A DNA stretch of 64,000 nt, from positions 1,184,001-1,248,000 of the forward strand of contig CAXXQS010000001.1 of NCBI GenBank assembly GCA_963674735.2, read 5' to 3'. The DNA comes from Myxococcota bacterium. GTDB lineage: Bacteria; Myxococcota_A; SURF-8. Both the position numbers and the translations under genes were made by a program. Positions 14,579-30,801 of this stretch are shown piece by piece. The notes beneath the pieces are model-generated. The model was not told the origin of the DNA, did not search any database, and worked only from the letters and a program-made list of their open reading frames with translations. The stretch's first letter is position 1, and each line of letters opens with the position of its first letter.

Positions 14579-17179
14579 GTGAGTGTTATGGACGCTTCTA
14601 GTTGGGTTGTTCTGAAGTTCGGCGGTACAAGTGTTTCATCCAGAGAGCGATGGGAAACCATTCGGGATATCGTACAGGATCATATTGAAAACGGACGACG
14701 GCCCTTTGTCGTTTGTTCGGCTTTATCCGGTGTTTCAGATGAGCTGGAAAGCCTGTTACAGGGCGTTATCGAGGGGAGTCACGAGGCGATTTTAGCTGAT
14801 ATCCGTCAACGCCATCTCGATTTGGCCGTTCAGTTGGGGGTTCAGCCTGAAAGTACCTTGCTTCCGCATTTCGAGCAGCTTTCGCGCCTCGTGATGGGAG
14901 CCTCACTGATTCAGGAAGTGAGCCCGCGTTTGCATGCCAAGGTGATGGCCTATGGCGAATTGTTGTCGACGAGTCTGGGGGCGGCGTTTCTCAATTGTTG
15001 CGGGTTGAATGTAGACTGGATCGATGCGCGTGAACATCTGGTTTCGGATAGCCGGAAACTGACACGCGCGCTTCAGCGTTATCTATCGGCGCATTGCCAG
15101 TTCACGCCGGACGACGTCATGCAAAAAGATATGGCAAGTCGTTCCGCTAACTGCATTCTCACGCAGGGTTTTATCGCCTCCGATCCCAACGGCGATACGG
15201 TTCTTTTAGGACGCGGCGGGTCGGATACGTCGGCCGCTTATTTTGCCGCCAAGCTTCAGGCGGAACGTTGCGAGATCTGGACGGATGTCGCCGGTATCTT
15301 CTCGGCCAACCCGCGCATGGTTCCCGAGCCGTTTCTGCTGAAAAGGCTGGATTACGATGAGGCCCAGGAAATCACCAGTTCGGGAGCGCAGGTGTTGCAT
15401 CCGCGTTGCCTGGACCCGGTGAAACAGTATCACATTCCTCTGCATATCCGCTGTACGCTCAACCCGAAGTTGGAAAGCACGGTGATCGGCGACTTCGACA
15501 GCTCCGACGAGGCACGTGTCAAAGTGATCGCGGCCAAGTCCGGGGTTACGTTGATTTCAATGGAAACCATGGGAATGTGGCAGGAAGTGGGTTTTCTGGC
15601 GCGGGTGTTCGACAAATTCAGCGAGCATCGTTTGAGTGTTGATCTGGTTTCCACCTCCCAGTCCAACGTTACGGCGTCCCTCGATCAGGTGGCCAATGCA
15701 CTGGATCCCGCCAGTATCGAGGCCTTACTTGAAGATTTGCAGGAGGTCTGTGCCGCGCGCGTGATCGGGCCCTGTGCGGCCATCTCGCTGGTGGGGCGCA
15801 ACATCCGCAGTATCATGCACGAACTGGGTCCGGCGCTGAAGGTTTTCGGCGAGCACAAAATCCATCTGGTATCCCAGGCCGCCAACGATCTCAACCTGAC
15901 GTTCGTGGTGGGCGAAGACCAGGCGCAGCGGCTGGTTCGTGAGCTGCATGCGCTGTTGGTGCAGAAAAAGCTGGAGGCTCCCAAGGAAAACCAAACCGAA
16001 GAACGCGAGATGGAGGATGATGAGGTTTCCGGTGCGCACGTTTGGTGGCGGAAACGGGCCGATGAGCTGCTGGATATGGCTCGGGACGAAAGCCCGCTGT
16101 TTGTCTACGATGAGGAAACGCTCGATGAGGCTGCAGAGTCCTTGTTGGCGATGTCCAATGTCGAACGGATCTTTTATGCCATCAAAGCCAACGCTCACCC
16201 GGATATTCTGAGCCGTTTTTACCATGCCGGGATCGGTTTCGAATGCGTTTCACCGGGCGAACTCGATCATATCGTTCGACTTTTTCCCGATCTTAAGGGG
16301 CAATCCGAACGTATGCTGTTTACACCGAATTTCGCTTCGGGTGAGGAATATCGGCACGGCTTCGAGCTGGGGGCATCGGTAACCCTGGACAATCTCTATC
16401 CTTTGGAAGCTTGGCCGAACCTGTTCAAGGGGCGGGAAATCTTTGTTCGCATCGATCCGGGGAAGGGTCGCGGTCATCACAAACACGTGAAGACCGCCGG
16501 GGAGCATTCCAAATTCGGCATTCTGCCTACCCAGATTCCGCGCTTGCTGGACGCGGTGAAAAAGGCCGATGCGCGTATCGTCGGTTTGCATGCGCATACC
16601 GGCAGCGGCATTTTAACCTATGACGCCTGGATCGATACCGCTCGTTTCTTCACCTCGTTGCTTGAACAGCTTCCCGATGTCCGTCATATGGATCTGGGGG
16701 GCGGCTTGGGGATTCCCGAACGGCCGGGGCAGCCGGTTTTGGATACGGTTGCAATCAACGAAAGTCTGAGACCGATTCGGCTGGCTTATCCCGAGGTGGC
16801 GATCTGGCTTGAGCCTGGACGGTATCTGGTGGCGCGTGCCGGGGTGTTGCTGGCCAAGGTAACCCAGGTTAAGGAAAAACGTGAGACGGCTTTTGTGGGA
16901 ATCGATGTCGGGATGAACACCTTGATTCGCCCGGCTCTATACGGAGCTTATCATCGAATCGTGAATCTCAGTCGCCTGGATGACACGCGTCGCGAAACGG
17001 TCAACGTGGTCGGGCCAATATGTGAAACGGGTGATACGCTCGGATATAATCGTGCCCTCGCGCCGTCCCAGGAAGGGGATATTTTGCTCATCGCCACTGC
17101 CGGTGCATATGGGCGCGTCATGAGTTCCAGTTACAATATGCGTCCCCCGGCTGCGGAAAAAATGCTGGCGCGACGTTAG
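14579..17179 (+). CDS. Bifunctional aspartate kinase / diaminopimelate decarboxylase (LysAC type)
   Basis: KFGGTS, LGRGGSDTSA and ACT domains, then YAIKAN (PLP Lys), HAHTGS, EPGRYL and GPICETGD. Confidence 0.95.
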   Translation: MSVMDASSWVVLKFGGTSVSSRERWETIRDIVQDHIENGRRPFVVCSALSGVSDELESLLQGVIEGSHEAILADIRQRHLDLAVQLGVQPESTLLPHFEQLSRLVMGASLIQEVSPRLHAKVMAYGELLSTSLGAAFLNCCGLNVDWIDAREHLVSDSRKLTRALQRYLSAHCQFTPDDVMQKDMASRSANCILTQGFIASDPNGDTVLLGRGGSDTSAAYFAAKLQAERCEIWTDVAGIFSANPRMVPEPFLLKRLDYDEAQEITSSGAQVLHPRCLDPVKQYHIPLHIRCTLNPKLESTVIGDFDSSDEARVKVIAAKSGVTLISMETMGMWQEVGFLARVFDKFSEHRLSVDLVSTSQSNVTASLDQVANALDPASIEALLEDLQEVCAARVIGPCAAISLVGRNIRSIMHELGPALKVFGEHKIHLVSQAANDLNLTFVVGEDQAQRLVRELHALLVQKKLEAPKENQTEEREMEDDEVSGAHVWWRKRADELLDMARDESPLFVYDEETLDEAAESLLAMSNVERIFYAIKANAHPDILSRFYHAGIGFECVSPGELDHIVRLFPDLKGQSERMLFTPNFASGEEYRHGFELGASVTLDNLYPLEAWPNLFKGREIFVRIDPGKGRGHHKHVKTAGEHSKFGILPTQIPRLLDAVKKADARIVGLHAHTGSGILTYDAWIDTARFFTSLLEQLPDVRHMDLGGGLGIPERPGQPVLDTVAINESLRPIRLAYPEVAIWLEPGRYLVARAGVLLAKVTQVKEKRETAFVGIDVGMNTLIRPALYGAYHRIVNLSRLDDTRRETVNVVGPICETGDTLGYNRALAPSQEGDILLIATAGAYGRVMSSSYNMRPPAAEKMLARR

Positions 17180-17296: not shown

Positions 17297-17474
17297 CATC
17301 TGTAGCTGCTTCTCAAATAAAATATCTTCGGATTATCGGATTGTGTTTGTGTGTTTTGACTGGCATAATGTCCCCGGGAAAAGGTAGTAAAACAATTTGT
17401 ATCATCGTTTCGCATGTTAGGGTGATTGTATGTAGGCAATCATCTTTTTGTGCGGCTGCTTTTCGAGGGCTAAC

Positions 17475-20327
17475 GTGGCGAACGTCTTGGTTGTCGATGA
17501 TGAGCGAGGAATGCGCACAACTCTGCAGCGTTTTCTTCAAAACGACGGACATGAAACGCAAACCGCTGAGGATGCCGTTCAAGCGTTGAAGTTGATGGAT
17601 GAAACCGTTTTTGACGTGGTGGTTTCCGATATTATTCTTCCGAAAATCAGCGGTGTTCAACTCTTGCAGATGATTCGGGAGCGAGGGGAGAACGTCAAGG
17701 TTCTGTTAATTACCGGAGAGCCCACCACCGGAACGGCCGTCGAAGCCGTCCGCGCCGGGGCGTTCGATTATCTGGCAAAACCGGTTTCGGGACGTGATAT
17801 ATGCCGGGTGGTCAATGCCGCTTCCAAGATCAAGCAACTCGAAGATCAAAACGAAAACTACCAGAAACATCTTGAGAAACTGGTGGAGGAACGAACTCAG
17901 CAGATTCGCCGATATTCCGAGCGGTTGACGCATATCGCGATGGATACCAAATTGTTTGGGATCAGCAAGACGGTCGATCATCTGGCAGAACGGGTGATGA
18001 CGCTTCTATCTGAAAACGTGGGGACAAAAGGAGGAGGCCTGTTTCTGAAGGAGGGGAATTGCCTGCGTCTCGTATACGCTATCGATGCGGGGCATCAGAA
18101 AAATGTCATTCCCTATCCGCCACCCGCACAGACGATTCTGCATCATGTTTGTGAAGAGGGCAAAACCCTGATCTACGACGACATCGACCAACTTGAAGAC
18201 GTCTGTCCTTCCGGGTGGTCCGGGTATCGGAACGGATCCGCCATGGCCATTCCACTGGTCGATTCCCGAAAAGACTTTTGTGGGGTGGTGACGTTACACA
18301 ATAAAATCGATCCTCCCTTCACGGCTCAGGATGCCGAACTGGGAGATATCATCATTTCTCACAGTATCGAAGCAATCAAAGTGATCAAGTTGAACCATTC
18401 GTTGAAAATTTCGGAAGATAAATACCGAAAAATCAGCGATGAAAGCCTAACCGGCATATTTATCCAAAAAGACTCGAAAGTCGTATATGTCAATCCCAGG
18501 TTGGGATATATGCTGGAGTGTGCTCCGGAGGAAATACCCAGCCTGATTGGAACGTCATTTCTCGATTTTATTTATGAAAGCGATCGTGCACTTGTCGAGA
18601 AACGTTCACGTGAACGCCTTGCTGGATTGGCTGTCCCGGCCAATTACGAAATTCGTATGCGCAGCCGTTCCGGTCGCAAAATCTGGTGCGAACTTCTGGC
18701 CTCCGTTATCGAGCACGAGGGACAACCGGCCATCATGGGGCATTTGATCGACATAACGGATCGGAAAGAGACGGAAGACGCGCTGATCCGAAGCAAGGAA
18801 CGTTATCGTTCCTTGATAGAGAACGCCCCGTTGGGCATTATCTCTGCCGATTTTAATGGAAACATTCTGAGTATCAATCCCGCCCTGCTGCAGATTTTGG
18901 GAAGCCCGTCGAGAGAGGCCGCGAGTCAGATCAATATGCTTACGTTCCCGAATCTGGTGGAGTCGGGTGTTTCGGCCGATATCCGTAAATGTCTGGATAC
19001 CGGTCTCTCTTTCGTTTCGGAGCATGGCTATCGATCTAAATGGGGGAAAGAATCCTGCTTGCGTTACCACATCCGGGCACAGCACGATAGCGTTGGAAAC
19101 ATCAGCGGTGTCTTGGCCATGGTTGAGGATATCTCCGATGCGGTTGCGGCGGAAGAAGAACGCAAAAAGCTGACGGCCCAGTTACAGCAGGCCCAGAAAA
19201 TGGAGGCCATCGGACGTTTGGCGGGTGGAATCGCGCATGATTTCAATAACCTGCTGACTGGCATCACCGGAAATGTGTCGCTCGCTATGTTGGATCTCGC
19301 TACTGAAGATCCCATGCAGGAGGCGCTGGATGAAATTCAGGAAGCCGCTTCGAATGCGGCCGGGTTGACACGCCAGTTACTCGCTTTTTCGCGCAAGCAG
19401 ATTATGGAAATGAAAAGCGTCAATCTGAACGACCTGGTACAAAACCTGTTTCGTATGATGCAGCGCTTGATCGGTGAACATATTGAAATTCGAATGGAAC
19501 TGGTTGACGATATCCCGAGTATTAAAGCGGATCCGGTGCAGATCGAACAGATCATCATCAACCTTGCCGTTAACGCACGCGATGCCATGCCTGAGGGCGG
19601 GAAACTGTTATTCAAAACCGAAGTGGAAACCATTGTTGATTCCAGCGAAAGCGAAGATGAGCGCAATCAGTTAACCCCAGGGTGCTATGTGGTTTTCAGT
19701 GTGACGGATACGGGTTGCGGTATCGATCTGAATCTACAGCCTCATATTTTTGAGCCGTTTTTCACGACCAAAGAGAAGGGCGAGGGAACCGGGCTTGGGC
19801 TTTCGACGGTATACGGGATTGTGAAGCAGCATAACGGTGCGGTTCGCCTGAAATCTGATTTAGGTGAAGGCTCTTCCTTTCGTATTTATATTCCCGCCAC
19901 GGAAGGAAAAACGGAACACAAGGCAAGTGCGAACAAACCCGAGAATATGCCGCACGGCAATGAAACCATTCTCATGGTTGAAGACGAACGTGTCGTGCGA
20001 GATATGACTCAGAAACTACTGACACGCATGGGGTACGACGTTCACTCCGCAAGCAATGGTTTGGATGCGCTGGCTCTGATCAAAAAAAATTCCCATGTAT
20101 TTGACCTGCTCCTAACCGATGTGGTGATGCCGGAAATGAACGGACGTGAGTTGGCGGAAAAAGCACGGGAATTGATCCCCGATGTGAAGGTCATATTCAC
20201 TTCCGGATACACCGACGACATGATTCTGCAGCACAAGGTTTTTGAAGAATCGGTTGACTTCATCGGCAAGCCTTACTCCCCTCTCGAAATGACGCGAAAA
20301 ATCCGCTCGGTATTAGACCGTAAATAA
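17475..20327 (+). CDS. Hybrid sensor kinase REC-GAF-PAS-PAS-HisKA-HATPase-REC
   Basis: GTG start after GAGGG. VLVVDDE, GGIAHDFNN, NARDAM, FFTTK..GTGLGL and a C-terminal receiver. Confidence 0.92.
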   Translation: MANVLVVDDERGMRTTLQRFLQNDGHETQTAEDAVQALKLMDETVFDVVVSDIILPKISGVQLLQMIRERGENVKVLLITGEPTTGTAVEAVRAGAFDYLAKPVSGRDICRVVNAASKIKQLEDQNENYQKHLEKLVEERTQQIRRYSERLTHIAMDTKLFGISKTVDHLAERVMTLLSENVGTKGGGLFLKEGNCLRLVYAIDAGHQKNVIPYPPPAQTILHHVCEEGKTLIYDDIDQLEDVCPSGWSGYRNGSAMAIPLVDSRKDFCGVVTLHNKIDPPFTAQDAELGDIIISHSIEAIKVIKLNHSLKISEDKYRKISDESLTGIFIQKDSKVVYVNPRLGYMLECAPEEIPSLIGTSFLDFIYESDRALVEKRSRERLAGLAVPANYEIRMRSRSGRKIWCELLASVIEHEGQPAIMGHLIDITDRKETEDALIRSKERYRSLIENAPLGIISADFNGNILSINPALLQILGSPSREAASQINMLTFPNLVESGVSADIRKCLDTGLSFVSEHGYRSKWGKESCLRYHIRAQHDSVGNISGVLAMVEDISDAVAAEEERKKLTAQLQQAQKMEAIGRLAGGIAHDFNNLLTGITGNVSLAMLDLATEDPMQEALDEIQEAASNAAGLTRQLLAFSRKQIMEMKSVNLNDLVQNLFRMMQRLIGEHIEIRMELVDDIPSIKADPVQIEQIIINLAVNARDAMPEGGKLLFKTEVETIVDSSESEDERNQLTPGCYVVFSVTDTGCGIDLNLQPHIFEPFFTTKEKGEGTGLGLSTVYGIVKQHNGAVRLKSDLGEGSSFRIYIPATEGKTEHKASANKPENMPHGNETILMVEDERVVRDMTQKLLTRMGYDVHSASNGLDALALIKKNSHVFDLLLTDVVMPEMNGRELAEKARELIPDVKVIFTSGYTDDMILQHKVFEESVDFIGKPYSPLEMTRKIRSVLDRK

Positions 20328-21346: not shown

Positions 21347-21648
21347 GGCACATTTCTTCTGGCAACGGCACCGAGAGGAATTCTGAGAAATGTGTGAGGA
21401 AAGATTAGAAGCCGATATGTGGTTCCAATGTTAAATATTCTTAATCGGTCATGGTGTTGCTCGTGAAATATCGCTAACCAAGTGAGAACTTACATCAAAG
21501 AAAAATAAAAAATTACAAAAACACGCTTGACTTGTTGCTATCTATTTGGTAGCTTGCCTTAAATTATCGTCAATGTGTGGGGCGCAACTTTCTTGTCTTT
21601 CTTGTGTTTCGAGTAAGTAATAGATACACGGGTTGATGGAGGGATGTA

Positions 21649-22017
21649 ATGACCGTCGCCGCAATTGTTGTTGACAATTCAATTCCGGTTGTCGGCTTCA
21701 CTGAGAAAGCCCTGAAACGTTTGGGTTATCAGGTTTCGGCCGCCAACGACGGAGAAGAAGCGGTCATGCTCTGCGAGGAGCATCGTAATCGCTTCCAATT
21801 GGTTGTGGCCGATGTGTTTCGTTCGGGGCGCGACCATCGGGCCATGATCGCGCGCATGCGACATACGCAGCCGGGGATGAAGGTTCTTTATACCTCGGGA
21901 GTTTCGGCGGATGTCTTGCATGAATATGGAGTGAGTCTAGGGGAGGACGAGCTTCTGGAAAAGCCGTTCACGTTGCAAGACCTAAATCAGAAGTTGTCCA
22001 AAATTCACAATAGCTGA
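21649..22017 (+). CDS. Single-domain response regulator (degenerate)
   Basis: Receiver pattern VVDN...LVVADV...LYTSG...EKPF, with RBS GGAGG. Confidence 0.75.
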   Translation: MTVAAIVVDNSIPVVGFTEKALKRLGYQVSAANDGEEAVMLCEEHRNRFQLVVADVFRSGRDHRAMIARMRHTQPGMKVLYTSGVSADVLHEYGVSLGEDELLEKPFTLQDLNQKLSKIHNS

Positions 22018-22100
22018 TTTCTTTCCCCGGATTGCAGATCGAACGAATCTATACCTTGCCCCGTAGTAGGGAAGGCCTGGATAAGAGTCAATAACCGAGG

Positions 22101-22442
22101 TCAGTTAAATCGAATGCGGGCGTGCTCTTCGCACAGGCTGCGAACCTCCAGCGCCCGCACCTGCTTCCAACGTCGTTCGTCCATATAGCAGTAAAAAGCG
22201 GCCGTGTACCCCGGTCGAATCACGGTTGTTCCAACCGGGGTAATCCCATCAAGCCGCTCGTTGCCCGCCTCTGTTTCAAGCTGAAATCCGCCGTCGATTT
22301 TCAGATCGCGATCCGTGTGGTTGGTCAGACGGATTTCCAGGTTTTGATCCATCATTTTCAGGCCGCAGCAGGTCTTGAACGCCAGGACGTCTTCGACATC
22401 GGAATTCATCTGCACCTGGATAACCAGGGATTTCTCACCCAT
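22101..22442 (-). CDS. Hypothetical protein with a CC motif, last gene of the thiolase operon
   Basis: Start overlaps the thiolase stop. 113 aa. Confidence 0.65.
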   Translation of the reverse strand: MGEKSLVIQVQMNSDVEDVLAFKTCCGLKMMDQNLEIRLTNHTDRDLKIDGGFQLETEAGNERLDGITPVGTTVIRPGYTAAFYCYMDERRWKQVRALEVRSLCEEHARIRFN

Positions 22443-23646
22443 CGTATTGGCCGATGATCGAAATGCTGCAGACGTTCATGAATGGAAATCCGCCCAGGTT
22501 GTGGGTCAATCCGTAACGCGGATTTTCGAGCTGACGTTCTCCGGCGCGTCCCTGGAACTGCAGATACATCTCGTAGATCATGCGCAGCCCCGAGGCTCCG
22601 ATGGGATGGCCGAAACATTTCAAACCGCCATCCACCTGGCAGGGAACACCGCCTCCGCGTAAATCGTAAAAGCCATCCATGATGTCGTTTACAGCGTGCC
22701 CGCGTTCGGAAATATGCAGGTCTTCATAGGTAACCAACTCGGTGATGGAGAAGCAATCGTGCAGTTCCATCATGCTGATTTCACGGCGCGGATCGGTGAT
22801 GCCGGCTTCTTTGTAGGCGCGCTCGCTGCATTTGTCGGTGGTCATGAAGTGCGAGCCGTCCCACTCGTTGTAACCCATTTCCTCACCGTTTGAGAGTGCC
22901 AGCTGCAAGGCTTTGACCGTAATCGGGTTTTTGATCCCCATTTCGCGTGCTTTTTCGACGGTGGTGACGATGGCGCAGGCCGAGCCGTCGCTGACCCCAC
23001 AGCAGTCGAACAATCCCAGCGGGTGGGCAATGATGGGAGCAGCCATGACTTGTTCTTCGGTGACGGCTTTGCGCAGATGCGCTTTCGGATTCAGAACGCC
23101 GTTGGCATGGCTTTTCGCCGAAATGTGGGCCATGGCGCGTTTGATGTCCTGATCTTTGACTTTGTGCTTGGCCGAGTAAGCCGAGGCCAACTGAGCGAAG
23201 GCTCCAGGGGCCGAAAGATTGGGATACCACAGCCAGTTGAGCGAGCCCGCGCCCGATCCCGGATTGGGCAGGCCGCCGTATCCGGTGTCCTTCAATTTCT
23301 CTACACCAAGCGCCAAGGCGACATCGTAAGCACCTGATGCTACCGCGTAAACCGCACCGCGAAAAGCTTCGGTGCCGCTGGCGCAATAGTTTTCAAGCCG
23401 TGTACCAGCGATGAATGGCAGGCGCAACGCGCGTGAAAAACCCAGCGCGCTTTTCCCGATGCTGATCTCTTCCATACAGACGCTGAACCATCCCGCTTCG
23501 ATGTCGTCGCGGTCAATCTTGGCGTCTTCCAAAGCTTCGACAAAAGCTTCCACCATCAGATTTTCCGGCCCGGCATCCCATCGCTCGCCGAAACGTGTGC
23601 AGCCCATACCGATGATCGCCACCTTGTCTCGAATTCCCGTGGCCAT
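22435..23646 (-). CDS. Thiolase family protein (SCP-x/HDCF type acetyl-CoA acetyltransferase)
   Basis: ATG 23646 after GGAGGA. ENYCASG, ELHDCF, GHPIGASG and HNLGG motifs. Confidence 0.92.
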   Translation of the reverse strand: MATGIRDKVAIIGMGCTRFGERWDAGPENLMVEAFVEALEDAKIDRDDIEAGWFSVCMEEISIGKSALGFSRALRLPFIAGTRLENYCASGTEAFRGAVYAVASGAYDVALALGVEKLKDTGYGGLPNPGSGAGSLNWLWYPNLSAPGAFAQLASAYSAKHKVKDQDIKRAMAHISAKSHANGVLNPKAHLRKAVTEEQVMAAPIIAHPLGLFDCCGVSDGSACAIVTTVEKAREMGIKNPITVKALQLALSNGEEMGYNEWDGSHFMTTDKCSERAYKEAGITDPRREISMMELHDCFSITELVTYEDLHISERGHAVNDIMDGFYDLRGGGVPCQVDGGLKCFGHPIGASGLRMIYEMYLQFQGRAGERQLENPRYGLTHNLGGFPFMNVCSISIIGQYDG

Positions 23647-23651
23647 TGTTT

Positions 23652-24903
23652 TCCTCCTTAGAATTTGAAGAGTTTGGCGATGAGTTGGGATTTCATGAGG
23701 TCGCCTGCGATTTTGAGTTTTCCTGACGTGTAGGCGGTCATGGGATTTAGTTTTCCGGCGGTCATATCGAGGAAGTCCTGTGCGCTCATGGCCAGGGTGG
23801 TGGTGGGGTTGGGGTGTTTTCCTTTTTCGACGGTGAGGGTCTGGTCTTTGACGGCGACGAACCATTGTCCGCCGTTGTCGCCTGCGAGATCGTACTGGAA
23901 GACGGCGTCGATACCGGCGGCTTTGTCTTTTTGGAAGACGTTCGGCATTTGGGCGAAGATATCGGCGGCGGAGGCCGCGTCGGCGTTTTTAGCGGTCTGC
24001 GGGGCGTCGCCGGTGGAGGCAGCCATCATGGGGGCCATAGCGGCGGTCAAGTTCGGGTATTCTTCGGCGTTCTCCATGGTGGCGATGCGGCTGTACTGGT
24101 CGCGCACCTGTTCGGGTGTAGGGGCGGTATCCGCCGTTCCGAGCATGGCTCCCGGTCCGGTGACGATGGCGGAGCGGGAGAAGTATCCGCCGCCGGCGTT
24201 GAGGATTTCACCGGAATGGCTGCAGTCCTCCGAGCAGAAGTACAAAACTGCCGGGGCGACGTTCTCCGGCTCGAGCCGGGCCAGCAGGTCGGGCGGCAGA
24301 AGGCCTTCGGTCAGGCGCGTGGCGGCGATGGGGGCGACGGTGTTGATGTGGATGTCGTAGCGCGCGCCTTCCTGTTTGAGGGTATTCATGAAGCCGATGA
24401 GGCCCATTTTGGCGGCGCTGTAGTTGGCCTGGCCGAAGTTTCCGAAGAGTCCGGCGGCGCTGGTGGTAAGCACGATGCGGCCGTATTTCTGTTCTCGCAT
24501 GTGGGCGAAGGCGGGCTGGGTGACGTAATAGGCGGCGTCGAGATGGACGCCCAGAACGGCTTTCCAGTCGCTTTCGGCCATTTTCATGAAGGATTTGTCG
24601 CGCAGGATTCCGGCGTTGTTGATGAGGATATCGAGGCGTCCGAAGGCGTCGATGGCGGCTTTGACGATGGCTTCGCCGCCTTCTTTGCTTGCAACGGAGT
24701 CGTAGTTGGCGACGGCCTGTCCGTCGAAGGCGCGGATTTCCTCGACGACCTTGTCGGCGGCGCGGCTGGAGGTGCCTGAGCCGTCGGCGGCACCGCCCAG
24801 ATCGTTGACCACCACCTTCGCGCCGCGTCGCGCCAGCTCAAGCGCATACGCGCGCCCCAAGCCCGCCCCGGCCCCCGTCACCACCGCCACACGGTCGGTG
24901 AAG
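23652..24903. repeat. Copy 1 of a 1252-bp direct repeat (SDR+SCP2 block plus downstream RBS)
   Basis: Matches 26395-27646 at a constant offset of 2743, with about 16 substitutions counted by eye. Confidence 0.97.
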
Positions 24904-26387
24904 TCCTGGTCCGGGCCGACTTGCAGCGCGGCCTGCGCTGCGTCGATCGGGGAGGCTTTCCAGAAATACCCGGTAAACCCGCGTTCCGAATCGGTGTAAC
25001 GTTTGCGGAATACCATTTCGACCGGCTGACCGACGAATACATCATCCACCTTGCAATCGGTGAAATCGGCCATGAGACGCCCCCCTTGAGGGAACTCTAC
25101 CATTCCGTAGACGCTCGGCGGATCGACCGAGACGGCCAGCAGATCGCCGGTGAAGCTTTTGACACGGGCGGGAGCGTCGGCGAACTCGCAGTCATCTTGA
25201 GTGTATACCGCGTTGCAAGACGGATTGACGCAGATGTCCATCTTGGGGAACTGGCGTGTTCCGCATTCACGACAGACTCCGCCCACAAAGCCGAGCAGCA
25301 TTTTCCGTTCACGCCATAAAGTCGACATGGCGGTTTGCGTGGGAGCTTCGGCACGAATGCCCATTTCGGTTTGAATCATGTCTCGGAATTTGAGGAATTT
25401 CTGGTAGTTGTCGCATTCTTCTTTTCGTTCGAGCGACCCGCGAATGCCCATGCGAGGTGCCAGTCGTTTAATCGCGTCGGTGGCGCGGAAGAGCAGGGCA
25501 TCGGCTCCCTGGCCGAAACCGACCAGTAGCACCGTCTCGCCAGGGCGCAGGTCGGGTAGAACCTGACCCAACATCACGAGCGGATGAGCCGCACCGGTTT
25601 CGCCGCAGACCTCATGCAGGTTGTCCTCCACACGATCCAGGTTGAAACCGATTTTCTTGGCGATTTTGCGGTGTTCGGCCTTAAAAAAACAGGGATAGAC
25701 CACGTGATCAATCTCAGCTGGGGCAATCGAAAGCTTTTTACACAGTCCTTCAACCGCTTGAGGGATGATTTTGCCGTAGCCTTCATCCCGCACCCAGCGT
25801 TCTTCCCACATGTAGTCGATGTCTTTTTTCGTGCCGCGGTAGTGATCGACGAAATCATGCGCCACCGAAAAACTGCCAAGGTATTCGGCAATAACGTTTT
25901 CCGTTCCGACGGTCACGGCCGCCGCGCCGTCGCCGAACCATAACTCGTAGAAATAGGCTGACTTGGACATGCGGCGATCCGACGCCACAACCATCATATT
26001 ATTTCGTTCACCGGATTTCACGGCATCCAGTGCTCCAATGAGTGCGCTGGTGCCGCAACGCAAGGTCGTTCCGTGGTCCTGGGTGAGGATTTCATCTTTC
26101 AGATTGCAACAGGCCTTCACCATTCCTGCGCAACTACGGTCGCTGAAAGGCAGAGTGGTCGAGCACAAAAGCAAGCCGTCGATGGTTTGTTTGTCCATGC
26201 CGCGCAACGTGTCGCGCGCAGCCGCTACCGCCATGGTCAGGGCATCTTCGTCCCAATTGCAAAAGGAACGCTCGCCCTGGGCGACCATCACGATTGCGGG
26301 AGCGAACCAGCCCATATTCTGTACGACACTCATGCGGTTGAGACGCAGGCGCGGGATGTAGCCGCCGTAGGAGGTCAGTCCGATCAT
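23658..26387 (-). CDS. Four-domain fusion: HMG-CoA-synthase/KASIII-like + DUF35 (Zn ribbon/OB fold) + SDR dehydrogenase + SCP2
   Basis: YGGYIPRLRL, DEDALTMAV and GDGAAA; CRECG...CVNPSC; TGAGAGLG, NNAG and YSAAK; LNPMTAYTSGKLKIAGD. Confidence 0.9.
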   Translation of the reverse strand: MIGLTSYGGYIPRLRLNRMSVVQNMGWFAPAIVMVAQGERSFCNWDEDALTMAVAAARDTLRGMDKQTIDGLLLCSTTLPFSDRSCAGMVKACCNLKDEILTQDHGTTLRCGTSALIGALDAVKSGERNNMMVVASDRRMSKSAYFYELWFGDGAAAVTVGTENVIAEYLGSFSVAHDFVDHYRGTKKDIDYMWEERWVRDEGYGKIIPQAVEGLCKKLSIAPAEIDHVVYPCFFKAEHRKIAKKIGFNLDRVEDNLHEVCGETGAAHPLVMLGQVLPDLRPGETVLLVGFGQGADALLFRATDAIKRLAPRMGIRGSLERKEECDNYQKFLKFRDMIQTEMGIRAEAPTQTAMSTLWRERKMLLGFVGGVCRECGTRQFPKMDICVNPSCNAVYTQDDCEFADAPARVKSFTGDLLAVSVDPPSVYGMVEFPQGGRLMADFTDCKVDDVFVGQPVEMVFRKRYTDSERGFTGYFWKASPIDAAQAALQVGPDQDFTDRVAVVTGAGAGLGRAYALELARRGAKVVVNDLGGAADGSGTSSRAADKVVEEIRAFDGQAVANYDSVASKEGGEAIVKAAIDAFGRLDILINNAGILRDKSFMKMAESDWKAVLGVHLDAAYYVTQPAFAHMREQKYGRIVLTTSAAGLFGNFGQANYSAAKMGLIGFMNTLKQEGARYDIHINTVAPIAATRLTEGLLPPDLLARLEPENVAPAVLYFCSEDCSHSGEILNAGGGYFSRSAIVTGPGAMLGTADTAPTPEQVRDQYSRIATMENAEEYPNLTAAMAPMMAASTGDAPQTAKNADAASAADIFAQMPNVFQKDKAAGIDAVFQYDLAGDNGGQWFVAVKDQTLTVEKGKHPNPTTTLAMSAQDFLDMTAGKLNPMTAYTSGKLKIAGDLMKSQLIAKLFKF

Positions 26388-26394
26388 GTTCAAG

Positions 26395-27646
26395 TCCTCC
26401 TTAGAATTTGAAGAGTTTGGCGATGAGTTGGGATTTCATGAGGTCGCCTGCGATTTTGAGTTTTCCTGACGTGTAGGCGGTCATGGGATTTAGTTTTCCG
26501 GCGGTCATATCGAGGAAGTCCTGTGCGCTCATGGCCAGGGTGGTGGTGGGGTTGGGGTGTTTTCCTTTTTCGACGGTGAGGGTCTGGTCTTTGACGGCGA
26601 CGAACCATTGTCCGCCGTTGTCGCCTGCGAGATCGTACTGGAAGACGGCGTCGATACCGGCGGCTTTGTCTTTTTGGAAGACGTTCGGCATTTGGGCGAA
26701 GATATCGGCGGCGGAGGCCGCGTCGGCGTTTTTAGCGGTCTGCGGGGCGTCGCCGGTGGAGGCGGCCATCATGGGGGCCATGGCGGCGGTCAAGTTGGGG
26801 TATTCTTCGGCGTTCTCCATGGTGGCGATGCGGCTGTACTGGTCGCGCACCTGTTCGGGGGTGGGGGCGGTATCCGCCGTTCCGAGCATGGCTCCCGGTC
26901 CGGTGACGATGGCGGAGCGGGAGAAGTATCCGCCGCCGGCGTTGAGGATTTCGCCGGAATGGCTGCAGTCTTCCGAGCAGAAGTACAAAACCGCCGGGGC
27001 GACGTTCTCCGGTTCGAGTCGGGCCAGCAGGTCGGGCGGCAGAAGGCCTTCGGTCAGGCGCGTGGCGGCGATGGGGGCGACGGTGTTGATGTGGATGTCG
27101 TAGCGCGCGCCTTCCTGTTTGAGGGTATTCATGAAGCCGATGAGGCCCATTTTGGCAGCGCTGTAGTTGGCCTGGCCGAAGTTCCCGAAGAGTCCGGCGG
27201 CGCTGGTGGTAAGCACGATGCGGCCGTATTTCTGTTCTCGCATGTGGGCGAAGGCGGGCTGGGTGACGTAATAGGCGGCGTCGAGATGGACGCCCAGAAC
27301 GGCTTTCCAGTCGCTTTCGGTCATTTTCATGAAGGATTTGTCGCGCAGGATTCCGGCGTTGTTGATGAGGATATCGAGGCGTCCGAAGGCATCGATGGCG
27401 GCTTTGACGATGGCTTCGCCGCCTTCTTTGCTTGCAACGGAGTCGTAGTTGGCGACGGCCTGTCCGTCGAAGGCGCGGATTTCCTCGACGACCTTATCGG
27501 CGGCGCGGCTGGAGGTGCCCGAGCCGTCGGCGGCACCGCCCAGATCGTTGACCACCACCTTCGCGCCGCGTCGCGCCAGCTCAAGCGCATACGCGCGCCC
27601 CAAGCCCGCCCCGGCCCCCGTCACCACCGCCACACGGTCGGTGAAG
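26395..27646. repeat. Copy 2 of the 1252-bp direct repeat
   Basis: Matches 23652-24903. Confidence 0.97.
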
Positions 27647-27687
27647 AGGATTTGACCTTTCGCATTCTCCGACGACAACGACGCCAT
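26401..27687 (-). CDS. SDR (MFE-2-like 3-hydroxyacyl-CoA dehydrogenase) with C-terminal SCP2 domain
   Basis: ATG 27687 after AAGGAGG. TGAGAGLGRAYA, VNDLGG and GNFGQANYSAAK motifs, then SCP2 tail. Confidence 0.92.
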   Translation of the reverse strand: MASLSSENAKGQILFTDRVAVVTGAGAGLGRAYALELARRGAKVVVNDLGGAADGSGTSSRAADKVVEEIRAFDGQAVANYDSVASKEGGEAIVKAAIDAFGRLDILINNAGILRDKSFMKMTESDWKAVLGVHLDAAYYVTQPAFAHMREQKYGRIVLTTSAAGLFGNFGQANYSAAKMGLIGFMNTLKQEGARYDIHINTVAPIAATRLTEGLLPPDLLARLEPENVAPAVLYFCSEDCSHSGEILNAGGGYFSRSAIVTGPGAMLGTADTAPTPEQVRDQYSRIATMENAEEYPNLTAAMAPMMAASTGDAPQTAKNADAASAADIFAQMPNVFQKDKAAGIDAVFQYDLAGDNGGQWFVAVKDQTLTVEKGKHPNPTTTLAMSAQDFLDMTAGKLNPMTAYTSGKLKIAGDLMKSQLIAKLFKF

Positions 27688-27933
27688 GTCGACCTCCTTG
27701 AGTGTATGGATCGCAGAACAACCCCTGTAAGGAACATCCCCGGTCGAATCGGACGTGGAGCATGAACGCGCTTCCGAAAATGGAACGCCCGAGACATTAT
27801 TATATTTGGAAACTGACCGCATTGTAGTCATTGAGCGGATTCATGTCAACGATCGCCGAGAAATATTGACGATTCCTGCTTTCACGGCTAATCTTCAGCC
27901 TGAAATGAGTTGGTTTTCCAATGAGGTAAAGCG

Positions 27934-30801
27934 ATGAAGTTGAAAAAGTTGTTTGCGATGCTGTGCTTGGTCGTTCTGCTACCGATTATCACTATCGGGT
28001 GCTCATCTACCTCCGAAGAGTCATCCTCGGATGGCGATGCGGACAATCCTGAAGGTGAAACGACTTTTACGCCTCCGTCGGCTTGGACCGTGCTTATTTC
28101 CGAGAGCGCTCCCTGGCCGGTACGAGCTGTTGCCGATGATGTGGTGGGTTATTTCAATGACATGGGGCTGGAAACCGAGTTGCAAGCCACCGACGTCGCA
28201 CCCGATTGCGAAAATGGCAAGGGCGTGGTGGTTTTTGTCGGGGATGGCTTGGGCGATGCGACTTTCGAAGGTGATGCGACCGATCAGACCTTTCGCATTT
28301 GGGAAACCCGTTGTGGTGATGGCGTGAAGGTGGAGTTGTCGGGTGGTGGACTGCTGGGGCGTCAGTATGCCGGGTATGAATGGCTGCATGCGCTGGGACT
28401 GCGCTTTTTTCACCCGGAAGAGGAGTATGTTCCTGACGCGCCGGTTTGGCCCGTTGATCTTCTCCAGCGACAGCACACTCCCGCGTTTAAATGGCGCAGC
28501 ACCAGTTTGCATCTCACTCATCCGCTGGAATTGGGCGATGTATTCAGCCTGAAGAACGAAGACTATCTGCAAGACGCCCTGAATTATATCGACTGGCAAA
28601 TCAAGAACGGGGCGTCCTATGGGCATGGTGGTGTCGCCATCTCCGATAACGACCATTACGGGCACGAACGCGGCTTTTTCAGGAGTGCCGGTATTACGTT
28701 GTACAACACCCAACAGGGGAGCAAACCGCTGATCGACCCGGACGACCCACGCAGCCCCGAGCAGCAGATCACCGATGCCATCGATGAAAAGATGGGGGAT
28801 GATCCCGACAACTATCCGGAGTTCTTCAGCTTCAGCTTTAATCCAACCGAATTTACGGAGATGGAAGATACGGTTGTCGTGGAGCAGATGACGCTGATTG
28901 CCAATTACATGGCCCAGCATTATCCGGATGTCGAACTACAGACAACCAATCACGGGACGGCAGGCGAGCCTACCCCCAATTACGGGGTGCGTTACTTCGA
29001 TCTGCCGAAATTCGCTCCCGACAATCTAGGGGTGAAAATCCATACTTTGATGTTCTACGATCTTTTCCGCCCTGCGCCGGTCTATGGTAATGAGAACTTC
29101 AATTATTTCTATGATTTCATGGAAGAAGAGTACCAAACACGCAAGCTCTGGTATTTCCCCGAAGCGGCCTGGTGGCTGACCTTCGATAACCAGGTGCCGT
29201 TGTATCTGCCGATCACCATCGAGGCGCGCGACCGCGACATACAGGGGATCAAGCATATGCTCGACGGCAAGCTTGAAGGTCATCGAACCTTCGGGTCCGG
29301 GCACGAATGGGGATATTGGCAAAACGAATACTGCCCCTTCCGCATGGCGATGGATACCGACTATCGCTATACCGATTGCCTGCACGATATGACGAGCCCG
29401 ATGGGCGAAGCGGCTGCGACAGTCCAGAAGGTGATGGAAGACTTGATTATTCAGCAGGAAAACGAGTTTATCTATGGGGATATTCTGCGCTACCTCGTTG
29501 GCGTCGATCCCGAAACGGAGGCGGCTTTGCAGGTGGGTATCGAATTCCATCCCATGCCTCCGACACCGGCCCAGATCATGAAATGGGAAGCGGCGGATAT
29601 CGAGGCTTTCCAGACGGGCCCGGCCAAGCAACTACAGGATATGGACGACAACTACGCGGCGTTGGTCGAGCGTTTGAACGCCGTGGCAGAGCAGGTGCCC
29701 GAAAAGGGCTTGCCGTGGTTCAACGAAATCCTGGACGGCGTGGAAATAACCGGGCTGCGCGCGCGTCATCAACTTCAGGCTTACTCGGCCCTGGCAACCT
29801 ACAGACAGTCGCAGCTTGAACTCTCGGCCGATTTGGATCAACAGGCGAAAGACCTGTTCGACCAAGCGAAGGCGACCACCGCCGACGCCCTGGTGGTGAT
29901 CGAGCGGCGCGAGCAGGGATTCCGTTATCAACCCTTGGAGCGCGCCATCGGTGGGGGTGAGGACTGCGACAGCGACGATAACTGGTCCACCTACAACTTC
30001 CGCGTGCACTGCCGCACCCATACCGCTTATTACTGGAATCGCATCGATAAACTGGTTGAGAACGAGTTGTTCGCTACCGACAAGGCCGTGTCGATTCCCG
30101 ATACGCTGTTGACCCTGGATCAACCCCTGGTGGTATCGATTCTCGATCCGGCGCTTAGCAACGTGCAAGTCGATTTCGGTGACGGCGCAAGCGAAGGCGG
30201 CAGCGAATTCAGCCACAGCTATGCGGCAACGGGCGTTTATCCGTTGACGATCACCGGTGAAAATGGCGGTCAGGCCTTTGAGTTCGAAACGCGGATTGCG
30301 GTTGTCACCGAGGAAAAACGGACCGGTTTTTCCGGCAAGGTTATCAGCCCGGAAGGTATGGATCTCGTGGAGTCGGTGATGCCGGGTGTGGTGTTCGGGT
30401 TTGCGGGCGATAACACCCCGATCCTGGGATTTACGGCGGATTCGGATGGCAATATTCTGCCGGATCAGTTTGTCGAGCTGGTGGCTGGCGACGCGGAACG
30501 GTCGTTTGATGGAACCATCGATCTGATGAATGTGCCGATCATCAGCAAGTCGGATGCCGCGATTCTATCTTACATTGTTGTGGCCAACGGAAGCGCCGAG
30601 CAAGACGATGCTGCGCAGCCCTTGGCGGTGGCGGGCGAGATGTCCATCGAGTCCATCGTGCAGGCCGTGGTGGTGGTCGGGGGCGGGGCTTTCGATGAAG
30701 AAGGCTCACGCAACCTGGTCGCCAGCACTTTGGGATATACCCCGGATACGCTTCCGGCCACGGTGCCGTTCCAGATCGATTATACGGTGCAAGCCGACTA
30801 G
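27934..30801 (+). CDS. Large lipoprotein of unknown function with a PKD-like domain
   Basis: Lipobox ITIG-C, SDGDAD linker, acidic composition, and VDFGDG...HSYAATGVY.LTITG PKD motif. Confidence 0.8.
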   Translation: MKLKKLFAMLCLVVLLPIITIGCSSTSEESSSDGDADNPEGETTFTPPSAWTVLISESAPWPVRAVADDVVGYFNDMGLETELQATDVAPDCENGKGVVVFVGDGLGDATFEGDATDQTFRIWETRCGDGVKVELSGGGLLGRQYAGYEWLHALGLRFFHPEEEYVPDAPVWPVDLLQRQHTPAFKWRSTSLHLTHPLELGDVFSLKNEDYLQDALNYIDWQIKNGASYGHGGVAISDNDHYGHERGFFRSAGITLYNTQQGSKPLIDPDDPRSPEQQITDAIDEKMGDDPDNYPEFFSFSFNPTEFTEMEDTVVVEQMTLIANYMAQHYPDVELQTTNHGTAGEPTPNYGVRYFDLPKFAPDNLGVKIHTLMFYDLFRPAPVYGNENFNYFYDFMEEEYQTRKLWYFPEAAWWLTFDNQVPLYLPITIEARDRDIQGIKHMLDGKLEGHRTFGSGHEWGYWQNEYCPFRMAMDTDYRYTDCLHDMTSPMGEAAATVQKVMEDLIIQQENEFIYGDILRYLVGVDPETEAALQVGIEFHPMPPTPAQIMKWEAADIEAFQTGPAKQLQDMDDNYAALVERLNAVAEQVPEKGLPWFNEILDGVEITGLRARHQLQAYSALATYRQSQLELSADLDQQAKDLFDQAKATTADALVVIERREQGFRYQPLERAIGGGEDCDSDDNWSTYNFRVHCRTHTAYYWNRIDKLVENELFATDKAVSIPDTLLTLDQPLVVSILDPALSNVQVDFGDGASEGGSEFSHSYAATGVYPLTITGENGGQAFEFETRIAVVTEEKRTGFSGKVISPEGMDLVESVMPGVVFGFAGDNTPILGFTADSDGNILPDQFVELVAGDAERSFDGTIDLMNVPIISKSDAAILSYIVVANGSAEQDDAAQPLAVAGEMSIESIVQAVVVVGGGAFDEEGSRNLVASTLGYTPDTLPATVPFQIDYTVQAD

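Follow-up and report, generated by a model that had tools for sequence, protein, structure and literature searches.

A four-gene operon of a Myxococcota bacterium that may encode an R-specific dehydrogenase/thiolase assembly on an inactive HMGS-like/DUF35 scaffold

Gene organization of the operon

The DNA analyzed here, called the window throughout, is a stretch of 64,000 nucleotides from a Myxococcota bacterium of the sulfate-reducer type (assembly GCA_963674735.2, contig CAXXQS010000001.1, positions 1,184,001 to 1,248,000 of the forward strand). On its minus strand, at 22101-27687, four co-directional open reading frames (ORFs) are tightly packed. They encode, from first to last, a free protein made of a short-chain dehydrogenase/reductase (SDR) domain and an SCP2 domain, a four-domain fusion of HMGS-like, DUF35, SDR, and SCP2 domains, a thiolase, and a small protein of 113 amino acid residues. 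A preliminary description of the window, made from the sequence alone, had proposed a tight four-gene operon with these domains, and the ORFs and Pfam matches bear this out. In this study, we describe the operon and its relatives and argue that it probably serves beta-oxidation.

The program-made ORF list gives the fusion as 23658-26393 (911 residues) with a TTG start at 26393; the ATG at 26387 is the likely start because 16 orthologues begin with MIG.TSYGGYIP. The sequence AAGGAGG lies 6 nt ahead of the ATG of gene 1, and the gap between genes 1 and 2 is 13 nt. The sequence TAAGGAGG at both SCP2 stop codons doubles as the Shine-Dalgarno site of the gene that follows, and the stop codon of the thiolase gene overlaps the start of the small-protein gene (ATGGGTGA). 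Three promoter-like sites were counted in the region, compared with 2.8 expected by chance, and the operon promoter is a consensus match only. The promoter-like site, the sharing of Shine-Dalgarno sites with stop codons, and the overlap of genes 3 and 4 point to a single transcription unit. The genes flanking the operon are unrelated to it and encode regulators, a PKD-domain protein, and a cation antiporter. An Rfam scan of 21500-28200 gave no matches at E ≤ 1.

Table 1. Features of the operon, with positions in the window
Feature	Position	Strand	Description
Sigma-70-like promoter	27821..27849	-	TTGACA-17-TACAAT, 11/12 matches; about 130 nt upstream of gene 1
Free SDR-SCP2 gene (gene 1)	26401..27687	-	428 residues; adh_short 8.5e-43, SCP2 2.2e-19 (Pfam)
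Four-domain fusion gene (gene 2)	23658..26387	-	909 residues from ATG 26387
PhlA/HMGS-like thiolase-fold domain, predicted catalytically dead (residues ~1-340)	25368..26387	-	Alignments to 9skh_A, 5m3k_A, 6esq_I
DUF35 domain (residues ~350-482)	24942..25340	-	Four-Cys zinc ribbon + OB fold; OB_ChsH2_C 1.4e-8, zf-ChsH2 (Pfam)
Fused SDR domain (residues ~496-790; D529, S643, Y656, K660)	24018..24902	-	adh_short 8e-42 (Pfam)
Fused SCP2 domain (residues ~820-909)	23661..23930	-	SCP2 3.8e-19 (Pfam)
SCP2-type (HDCF) thiolase gene (gene 3)	22435..23643	-	402 residues; Thiolase_C_1 1.3e-27, Thiolase_N 1.8e-13 (Pfam)
Small-protein gene (gene 4)	22101..22442	-	113 residues; Ig-like beta-sandwich model
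Direct repeat copy 1	26395..27646	.	Free SDR-SCP2 + stop codon + Shine-Dalgarno site of fusion gene
Direct repeat copy 2	23652..24903	.	Fused SDR-SCP2 + stop codon + Shine-Dalgarno site of thiolase gene

Domains and active-site residues

In the N-terminal half of the fusion, Pfam detected ACP_syn_III_C/ACP_syn_III, which has the HMGS/KAS III fold, followed by zf-ChsH2 and OB_ChsH2_C, which make up DUF35; Pfam and Protein Data Bank (PDB) matches thus place an HMGS-like domain and DUF35 in one polypeptide. Among solved structures, the HMGS-like domain matched PhlA best (9skh_A, E-value 2.3e-35; 5m3k_A, 1.1e-33), followed by archaeal HMGS (6esq_I, 7.7e-20), and the DUF35 domain matched 6esq_E (1.8e-8) and PhlB (5m3k_B, 1.6e-4). 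Three of the four catalytic residues of HMGS are replaced (Cys by Leu109, His by Pro232, and Asn by Glu263), and Glu39 alone is retained. Pro232, Glu263, and Glu39 are invariant in 16 orthologues, and the zinc-ribbon cysteines C372, C375, C386, and C391 are likewise invariant in the orthologue alignment. Judging from these substitutions, the HMGS-like domain is catalytically dead, as the term pseudo-HMGS in the preliminary description had implied. Within this domain, 150 bases (25626-25777) are skipped in one contig each of two public sequencing runs of one sample; these contigs have only 30 letters on the shorter side of the skip, and the skip probably arose in the assembly graph or reflects a minor variant.

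The SDR domain matched yeast MFE-2 (2et6, 1.2e-136) and human 17beta-HSD4 (1zbq, 1.9e-92), so that the echo of MFE-2 noted earlier proved strong; BbsD (7pcs_B, 4.2e-33) is also among its solved relatives. A VVVNDLGG segment is common to this domain and the human and yeast MFE-2 dehydrogenases, and Asp529 stands at the end of beta-2. An Asp after beta-2 of an SDR marks NAD(H) use, and Asp529 suggests NAD(H) as the cofactor here. The catalytic Ser-Tyr-Lys residues are present in both SDR modules, and S643, Y656, and K660 are invariant among orthologues. Both SDR-SCP2 modules thus look like active MFE-2-type (3R)-hydroxyacyl-CoA dehydrogenases, the R stereospecificity being assigned from their likeness to MFE-2.

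The thiolase was described beforehand as being of the HDCF type, and it indeed carries HDCF together with the complete set of catalytic motifs (C87, H295-D-C297-F, and G345-H346-P), none of which varies among 17 sequences; the enzyme is therefore active-looking. Its PDB matches are led by archaeal thiolases (7yvy, 3e-52; 6esq_A, 3.9e-49), followed by BbsB (7pxp_C, 4.2e-39), and PhlC is a weak match (6.5e-19 or weaker). In NCBIfam, the protein scored 672.7 bits against NF004810 (cut-off 403) and 136.6 bits against the BbsB model (cut-off 750). Taken with the matches of the N-terminal half of the fusion, these results uphold the analogy to the thiolase/HMGS/DUF35 and PhlABC complexes that had been drawn from the sequence.

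Relatives of the operon and the missing hydratase

Relatives are encoded in 252 species genomes, and the best 80 loci were examined; the proportions of loci in this paragraph refer to those with enough flanking sequence to judge. At least 120 proteins of about 910 residues share the four-domain architecture with 59-66% identity, and their named sources are Desulfomonile, Desulfobacterales, Desulfatiglandales, and similar bins. The fusion contains an SDR domain in 70 of 71 loci and an SCP2 domain in 66 of 71. A thiolase lies downstream of it in 57 of 58 loci, and an SDR gene lies directly upstream in 62 of 64, 54 of these with SCP2. When 31 genomes of the window's phylum were sampled, 8 proved to encode an HMGS-DUF35 relative. 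At three loci (L029, L072, and L080), a further SCP2-like stretch (query residues ~312-428) stands between the SCP2 domain of the fusion and the thiolase, possibly as an extra SCP2 gene or domain.

The absence of a hydratase from the operon, noted in the preliminary description, holds for this genome but not as a trait of the family. At 56 of 60 loci, the reading frame of the upstream SDR gene stays open for a further 228-471 codons (mostly 277-331) ahead of the SDR. The free SDR-SCP2 protein of the window aligns with 63% identity to residues 292-708 of a 708-residue protein of a sister genus, and in 56 of 59 loci, fewer than 400 nt separate the SDR from the end of an upstream homologue of the N-terminal domain of that protein. 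Pfam identified the N-terminal domain at locus L017 as the hydratase-2 of MFE-2 (MFE-2_hydrat-2_N, 1.6e-22; MaoC, 2e-21), and in one genome hydratase-2 is a separate gene of 303 residues. By contrast, no remnant of hydratase-2 was found in the window and no orthologue in its genome (best match, 28% identity), which has three other, unrelated MaoC genes elsewhere. The family norm is thus hydratase-SDR-SCP2, dead HMGS-DUF35-SDR-SCP2, and thiolase, and the window holds a truncated form. Homology to the sister genus extends from exactly the SDR start to the small gene, and the flanks differ. The hydratase domain was lost in the window by a rearrangement with its breakpoint at the SDR start; as read from these alignments, the missing hydratase reflects a genome- or lineage-specific loss.

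In the relatives, an acyl-CoA dehydrogenase gene lies downstream in 35 loci (the downstream flank reaches 4 kb or more in 49) and a TetR regulator gene upstream in 32 (the upstream flank reaches 4 kb or more in 54). Seen less often nearby are genes for an AMP-forming (acyl-CoA) ligase (18 loci), a sigma-54 activator (10), a crotonase (8), and a family III CoA-transferase (7). To judge from these genes, the context in the relatives is a catabolic, beta-oxidation-type setting. Genes for steroid or aromatic metabolism or for fumarate addition were found neither next to the operon in the window nor among the 12 commonest neighbor clusters of the relatives. The sterol link suggested in the preliminary description was accordingly dropped: a sterol or steroid role has no supporting gene context, and the conserved neighbors (acyl-CoA dehydrogenase, AMP-forming ligase, and TetR) do not point to sterols.

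Direct repeat and concerted evolution of the SDR-SCP2 modules

The free gene is a near-copy of the C-terminal half of the fusion because the two are part of a direct repeat of 1252 bp, the copies of which are 98.7% identical with 16 mismatches (15 synonymous and one Ala/Thr). The copies differ with a pS of 0.050 and a pN of 0.0011 (pN/pS ~0.02), and both are therefore under purifying selection. Contigs from public runs carry the variants of each copy with 0 differences; these de Bruijn contigs break at the repeat edges (overlaps of ~30 nt) and do not bridge the repeat, and the runs may be the source sample. An assembly artefact is ruled out by the 16 differing sites, by the presence of both variant sets in reads-derived contigs, and by the two-copy layout in 62 of 64 loci.

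The same pattern recurs among the relatives. The upstream and fused SDR(-SCP2) copies are 60-99.8% identical within a genome (61 loci), whereas each copy of a relative is only ~55-63% identical to the copy in the window. A tree of 122 SDR cores requires at least 26 changes between the free and the fused state, and 18 of the 61 genomes have their two copies side by side as sister leaves (support 64-100). A tree with all free copies in one clade is 1191 log-likelihood units worse, and a single ancient duplication followed by independent divergence is ruled out by the approximately unbiased (AU) test (p-AU 0.00023). Sliding identity plots show mosaics: the copies at L017 and L061 hardly differ in the SDR core and in SCP2 but diverge between these regions, and those at L047 and L064 are near-identical in the first 500-650 bp only. 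Residues 241-300 (numbering of the free protein) are most often different between the copies (44 loci), and at position 248, 41 of the 44 upstream copies have Tyr and 29 of the 44 fused ones have Phe. These patterns indicate that the two SDR modules are recurrently homogenized by gene conversion and that segment 241-300 resists it. Within this segment, positions 243, 248, 280, and 281 carry copy-specific residues, which may reflect different functions of the copy linked to the hydratase and the copy linked to the scaffold.

The concerted evolution of tufA/tufB is similar in that paralogues within a genome are closer to each other than to orthologues, with mosaic tracts in the present case. Here, however, conversion takes place between partners that lie 2.7 kb from each other in one operon: a stand-alone (or hydratase-fused) gene and the C-terminal half of a four-domain fusion.

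The 113-residue protein

The 113-residue protein had no family matches in Pfam or NCBIfam. A profile search with it gave 63 clusters at E ≤ 1e-10 (1.84 billion representatives), and longer relatives (P0136 and others) have no added domain. In an alignment of 18 orthologues, M12, S14, F22, C25, C26, D32-Q-N-L-E36, Y84, D88, and W92 are invariant. The predicted structure is an Ig-like beta-sandwich (pLDDT 83.7), and the most conserved motif, AFKTCCGLKMFDQNLE, is its least confident part. The best Foldseek match was ApaG (E 4e-3, TM 0.43), and the best VIA-align matches were archaeal pilin and FlaF/FlaG beta-sandwiches (Z 8-9.5); these matches give no function because the fold is a common one. 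In the fetched loci, all copies found by tblastn lie directly after the thiolase gene of this operon, and 21 of 51 loci encode the small protein no more than 2 kb from the thiolase. Among 301 genomes, it was found in two, that of the window and one of the same family. A subunit or an adaptor is a reasonable guess for this protein. Its gene is split over two frames in four metagenome bins (L041, L045, L061, and L030), through either assembly frameshift errors or decay of the gene.

Proposed function and alternatives

We propose, as the probable though by no means certain function, that the operon encodes an R-specific hydroxyacyl-CoA dehydrogenase/thiolase assembly for beta-oxidation, built on a dead HMGS/DUF35 scaffold. 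It would carry out the last two steps of the beta-oxidation cycle via (3R)-hydroxyacyl-CoA, that is, with peroxisome-type stereochemistry, and the expected substrate is a fatty or branched acyl-CoA. By analogy with the solved archaeal, PhlACB, and MucABC complexes and with the assayed Pseudomonas fluorescens pair, the dead HMGS-DUF35 half would bind the thiolase, and the fused dehydrogenase and the lipid-binding SCP2 domain would thereby be tethered beside the thiolase active site. NAD-dependent oxidation of 3-hydroxyacyl-CoA is unfavorable and thiolysis is exergonic; in the proposed assembly, the latter would pull the former. The dehydrogenases of MFE-2 work as dimers, and the free SDR-SCP2 protein is therefore the most likely dimer partner of the fused SDR. 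In the relatives, where the partner also carries hydratase-2, the SDR pair would bring the hydratase together with the dehydrogenase and the thiolase in one assembly; in the genome of the window, hydration would need to come from one of the three unrelated MaoC paralogues. Recurrent gene conversion would keep the two SDR-SCP2 modules interchangeable.

Several points weigh against this proposal. The stereospecificity, the cofactor, and the direction of the reaction are taken from the likeness to MFE-2 and from one Asp residue, and the association of the thiolase with the fusion is a prediction by homology. In the AlphaFold model of the whole fusion (16-row alignment), the mean pLDDT is 61 and the pTM 0.38, and the placement of the domains is not readable from it. 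The role of the free copy as a dimer partner competes with extra dosage or a leftover of a truncated hydratase gene, which would also fit. The genome already has ordinary S-specific beta-oxidation enzymes (four strong 3HCDH_N matches), to which the operon would be an extra system. The operon in the window adjoins no hydratase, acyl-CoA dehydrogenase, ligase, or TetR gene, and the catabolic context is borrowed from the relatives. Finally, in the one archaeal system studied, a thiolase/DUF35 pair with an R-specific SDR serves synthesis and not breakdown (bioRxiv 10.1101/2024.07.05.601840).

This last point leads to the main rival explanation, the synthetic direction. The thiolase would then condense acyl-CoA with acetyl-CoA, and the tethered SDR would pull the Claisen condensation by reduction to (R)-3-hydroxyacyl-CoA, the product feeding a storage polyester or acyl carrier protein (ACP)-independent fatty acid synthesis. 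In the archaeal case, a KT/DUF35 pair drives condensation and binds a MaoC dehydratase as well as the R-specific SDR; the best solved relatives of the present thiolase are likewise archaeal biosynthetic thiolases (7yvy and 6esq_A), and the operon in the window stands by itself without an acyl-CoA dehydrogenase or a ligase. However, Asp529 is as in the NAD-dependent MFE-2 dehydrogenases, whereas the archaeal reductase is strictly NADPH-dependent. The operons of relatives contain acyl-CoA dehydrogenase, acyl-CoA ligase, and TetR genes, and no enoyl reductase is among their 12 commonest neighbor clusters. Moreover, the only bacterial pair of a dead HMGS and a thiolase that has been assayed cleaved acetoacetyl-CoA and made none (PMC12960953). 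We consider a biosynthetic role unlikely on balance.

About equally unlikely, in our estimate, is an assembly specialized for bulky, 2-methyl-branched, steroid-like, or aromatic-derived acyl-CoAs, which takes up the bulky or branched substrates of the preliminary description and would be comparable with MFE-2/SCPx, Shy/Sal, ChsH2/Ltp2, or BbsAB/BbsCD of toluene breakdown. Each operon has two SCP2 domains, the thiolase is of the SCP2 (HDCF) type, and the solved relatives include BbsB for the thiolase and BbsD for the SDR. In addition, DUF35 proteins reportedly partner thiolase-fold enzymes in bile-acid side-chain cleavage (PMC12329534, PMC11321319). Yet the score of the thiolase is far below the cut-off of the BbsB model, it retains the nucleophilic Cys, unlike the Ltp2/Sal aldolases, and the steroid, aromatic, and fumarate-addition genes that this explanation calls for are missing from the neighborhoods examined.

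That there is no assembly at all seems improbable to us. The fusion would then be a co-expression device and the free SDR-SCP2 protein a redundant remnant of a truncated hydratase-SDR-SCP2 gene, which agrees with the apparent loss of the hydratase domain in the window by rearrangement at the SDR start. But all thiolase/HMGS-like/DUF35 trios with a solved structure or an assay are complexes, the dead domain is invariant at many positions in 16 orthologues and so needs a non-catalytic role, and the low pN/pS of the two SDR copies indicates strong purifying selection on both. Least probable is a Friedel-Crafts C-acyltransferase of secondary metabolism of the PhlACB/MucABC type: among solved structures, PhlA comes closest to the N-terminal half of the fusion, but the thiolase has the HDCF and GHP motifs that are lost in PhlC and MucB according to PMC12960953, PhlC matches it weakly, no polyketide synthase (PKS) or nonribosomal peptide synthetase (NRPS) genes lie near the operon, and the fused partner looks like a beta-oxidation dehydrogenase.

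The proposed R-specific dehydrogenase/thiolase assembly can be extended to the whole operon family, but only tentatively, and we hold this extension to be possible rather than probable. The family would be a bacterial equivalent of the trifunctional beta-oxidation enzyme with wholly different components: an MFE-2-like protein and the scaffold protein would pair via their SDR domains, and the intermediates would be channelled among hydratase, dehydrogenase, and thiolase. Conversion would recur because the pairing interface is homotypic, the 113-residue protein would be a new subunit, and the present genome would be a natural variant without the hydratase. The proposed function would give the orphan dead-HMGS/DUF35/thiolase loci a concrete, testable job, namely, anaerobic fatty acid breakdown in Desulfomonilaceae- and Syntrophales-type bacteria. 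The repeated homogenization of the SDR-SCP2 modules inside and outside the fusion may serve as a natural marker of required compatibility, and it predicts specific pairing.

Neighboring genes

Four other genes in the vicinity of the operon, all on the plus strand, were observed. An ORF of 866 residues (14579-17179) contains amino-acid kinase and ACT domains and a pyridoxal phosphate (PLP)-dependent Orn/DAP/Arg decarboxylase domain, and resembles a fusion of an aspartokinase with a diaminopimelate-decarboxylase-like enzyme. It is followed by a hybrid sensor kinase of 959 residues with two receiver domains, GAF, and PAS (17448-20327) and by a lone receiver protein of 122 residues (21649-22017), which is convergent with the end of the operon. 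Divergent from the operon promoter is a gene for a protein of 955 residues (27934-30801), the sole Pfam signal of which is a weak PKD domain; this gene occupies the site of the hydratase domain and the TetR gene in relatives.

Comparison with known systems

The archaeal thiolase/HMGS/DUF35 complex, reportedly described in 2018, has the same three folds, as seen in the matches to chains A, I, and E of 6esq. It differs from the present system in that here the HMGS is apparently inactive, HMGS and DUF35 are parts of one chain, and the second enzyme is a dehydrogenase. The archaeal complex serves mevalonate synthesis, whereas breakdown is the likely direction here.

The closest bacterial system is PfACAT/HMGS-DUF35 of P. 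fluorescens, in which the HMGS is dead and the thiolase intact and the activity is thiolytic only (Liao et al., Nat Commun 2026, PMC12960953). The same paper counts about 1,000 "minimal" bacterial HMGS-ACAT-DUF35 loci, to which it could assign no pathway, and calls its own complex an evolutionary intermediate without a pathway. The two systems share a fused HMGS-like-DUF35 protein with catalytic residues lost, a thiolase with intact Cys, HDxF, and GHx, and the lack of PKS and NRPS neighbors. In the present operon, an MFE-2-type SDR and SCP2 are added to the fusion, a second SDR-SCP2 gene lies upstream, and a small protein follows the thiolase; furthermore, the Glu of the E-C-H-N tetrad is retained, and the operons of relatives point to beta-oxidation. 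The system had been called undescribed beforehand, which is no longer true of the dead-HMGS-DUF35/thiolase core, assayed in P. fluorescens, and still appears to hold for the SDR-SCP2 extension. No paper on this extension, on the hydratase partner, or on the conversion was found in the searchable full-text literature, and the supplementary lists of PMC12960953 may include such loci. The core scaffold was thus already published in 2026, and the four-domain fusion is a widespread but unstudied extension of it.

In Sulfolobus acidocaldarius, a KT/DUF35 core binds ACR, an R-specific SDR, and MaoC-HCD (bioRxiv 10.1101/2024.07.05.601840). Both systems combine a thiolase/DUF35 core with an R-specific SDR and a MaoC-type hydratase or dehydratase, the R specificity being predicted in ours and the hydratase occurring in its relatives. 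The archaeal complex differs by its separate proteins, its NADPH-specific reductase, the lack of an HMGS-like subunit and of SCP2, and its synthetic function.

Peroxisomal MFE-2 (17beta-HSD4) and SCPx share with the operon family the SDR, SCP2, and HDCF thiolase and, in the relatives, hydratase-2. The order of the domains is hydratase-SDR-SCP2 in the relatives and SDR-hydratase-SCP2 in MFE-2. Furthermore, in the present operon, which has no hydratase-2, SCP2 is attached to the dehydrogenases and not to the thiolase, and a dead-HMGS/DUF35 scaffold is added to the peroxisome-type set of domains.

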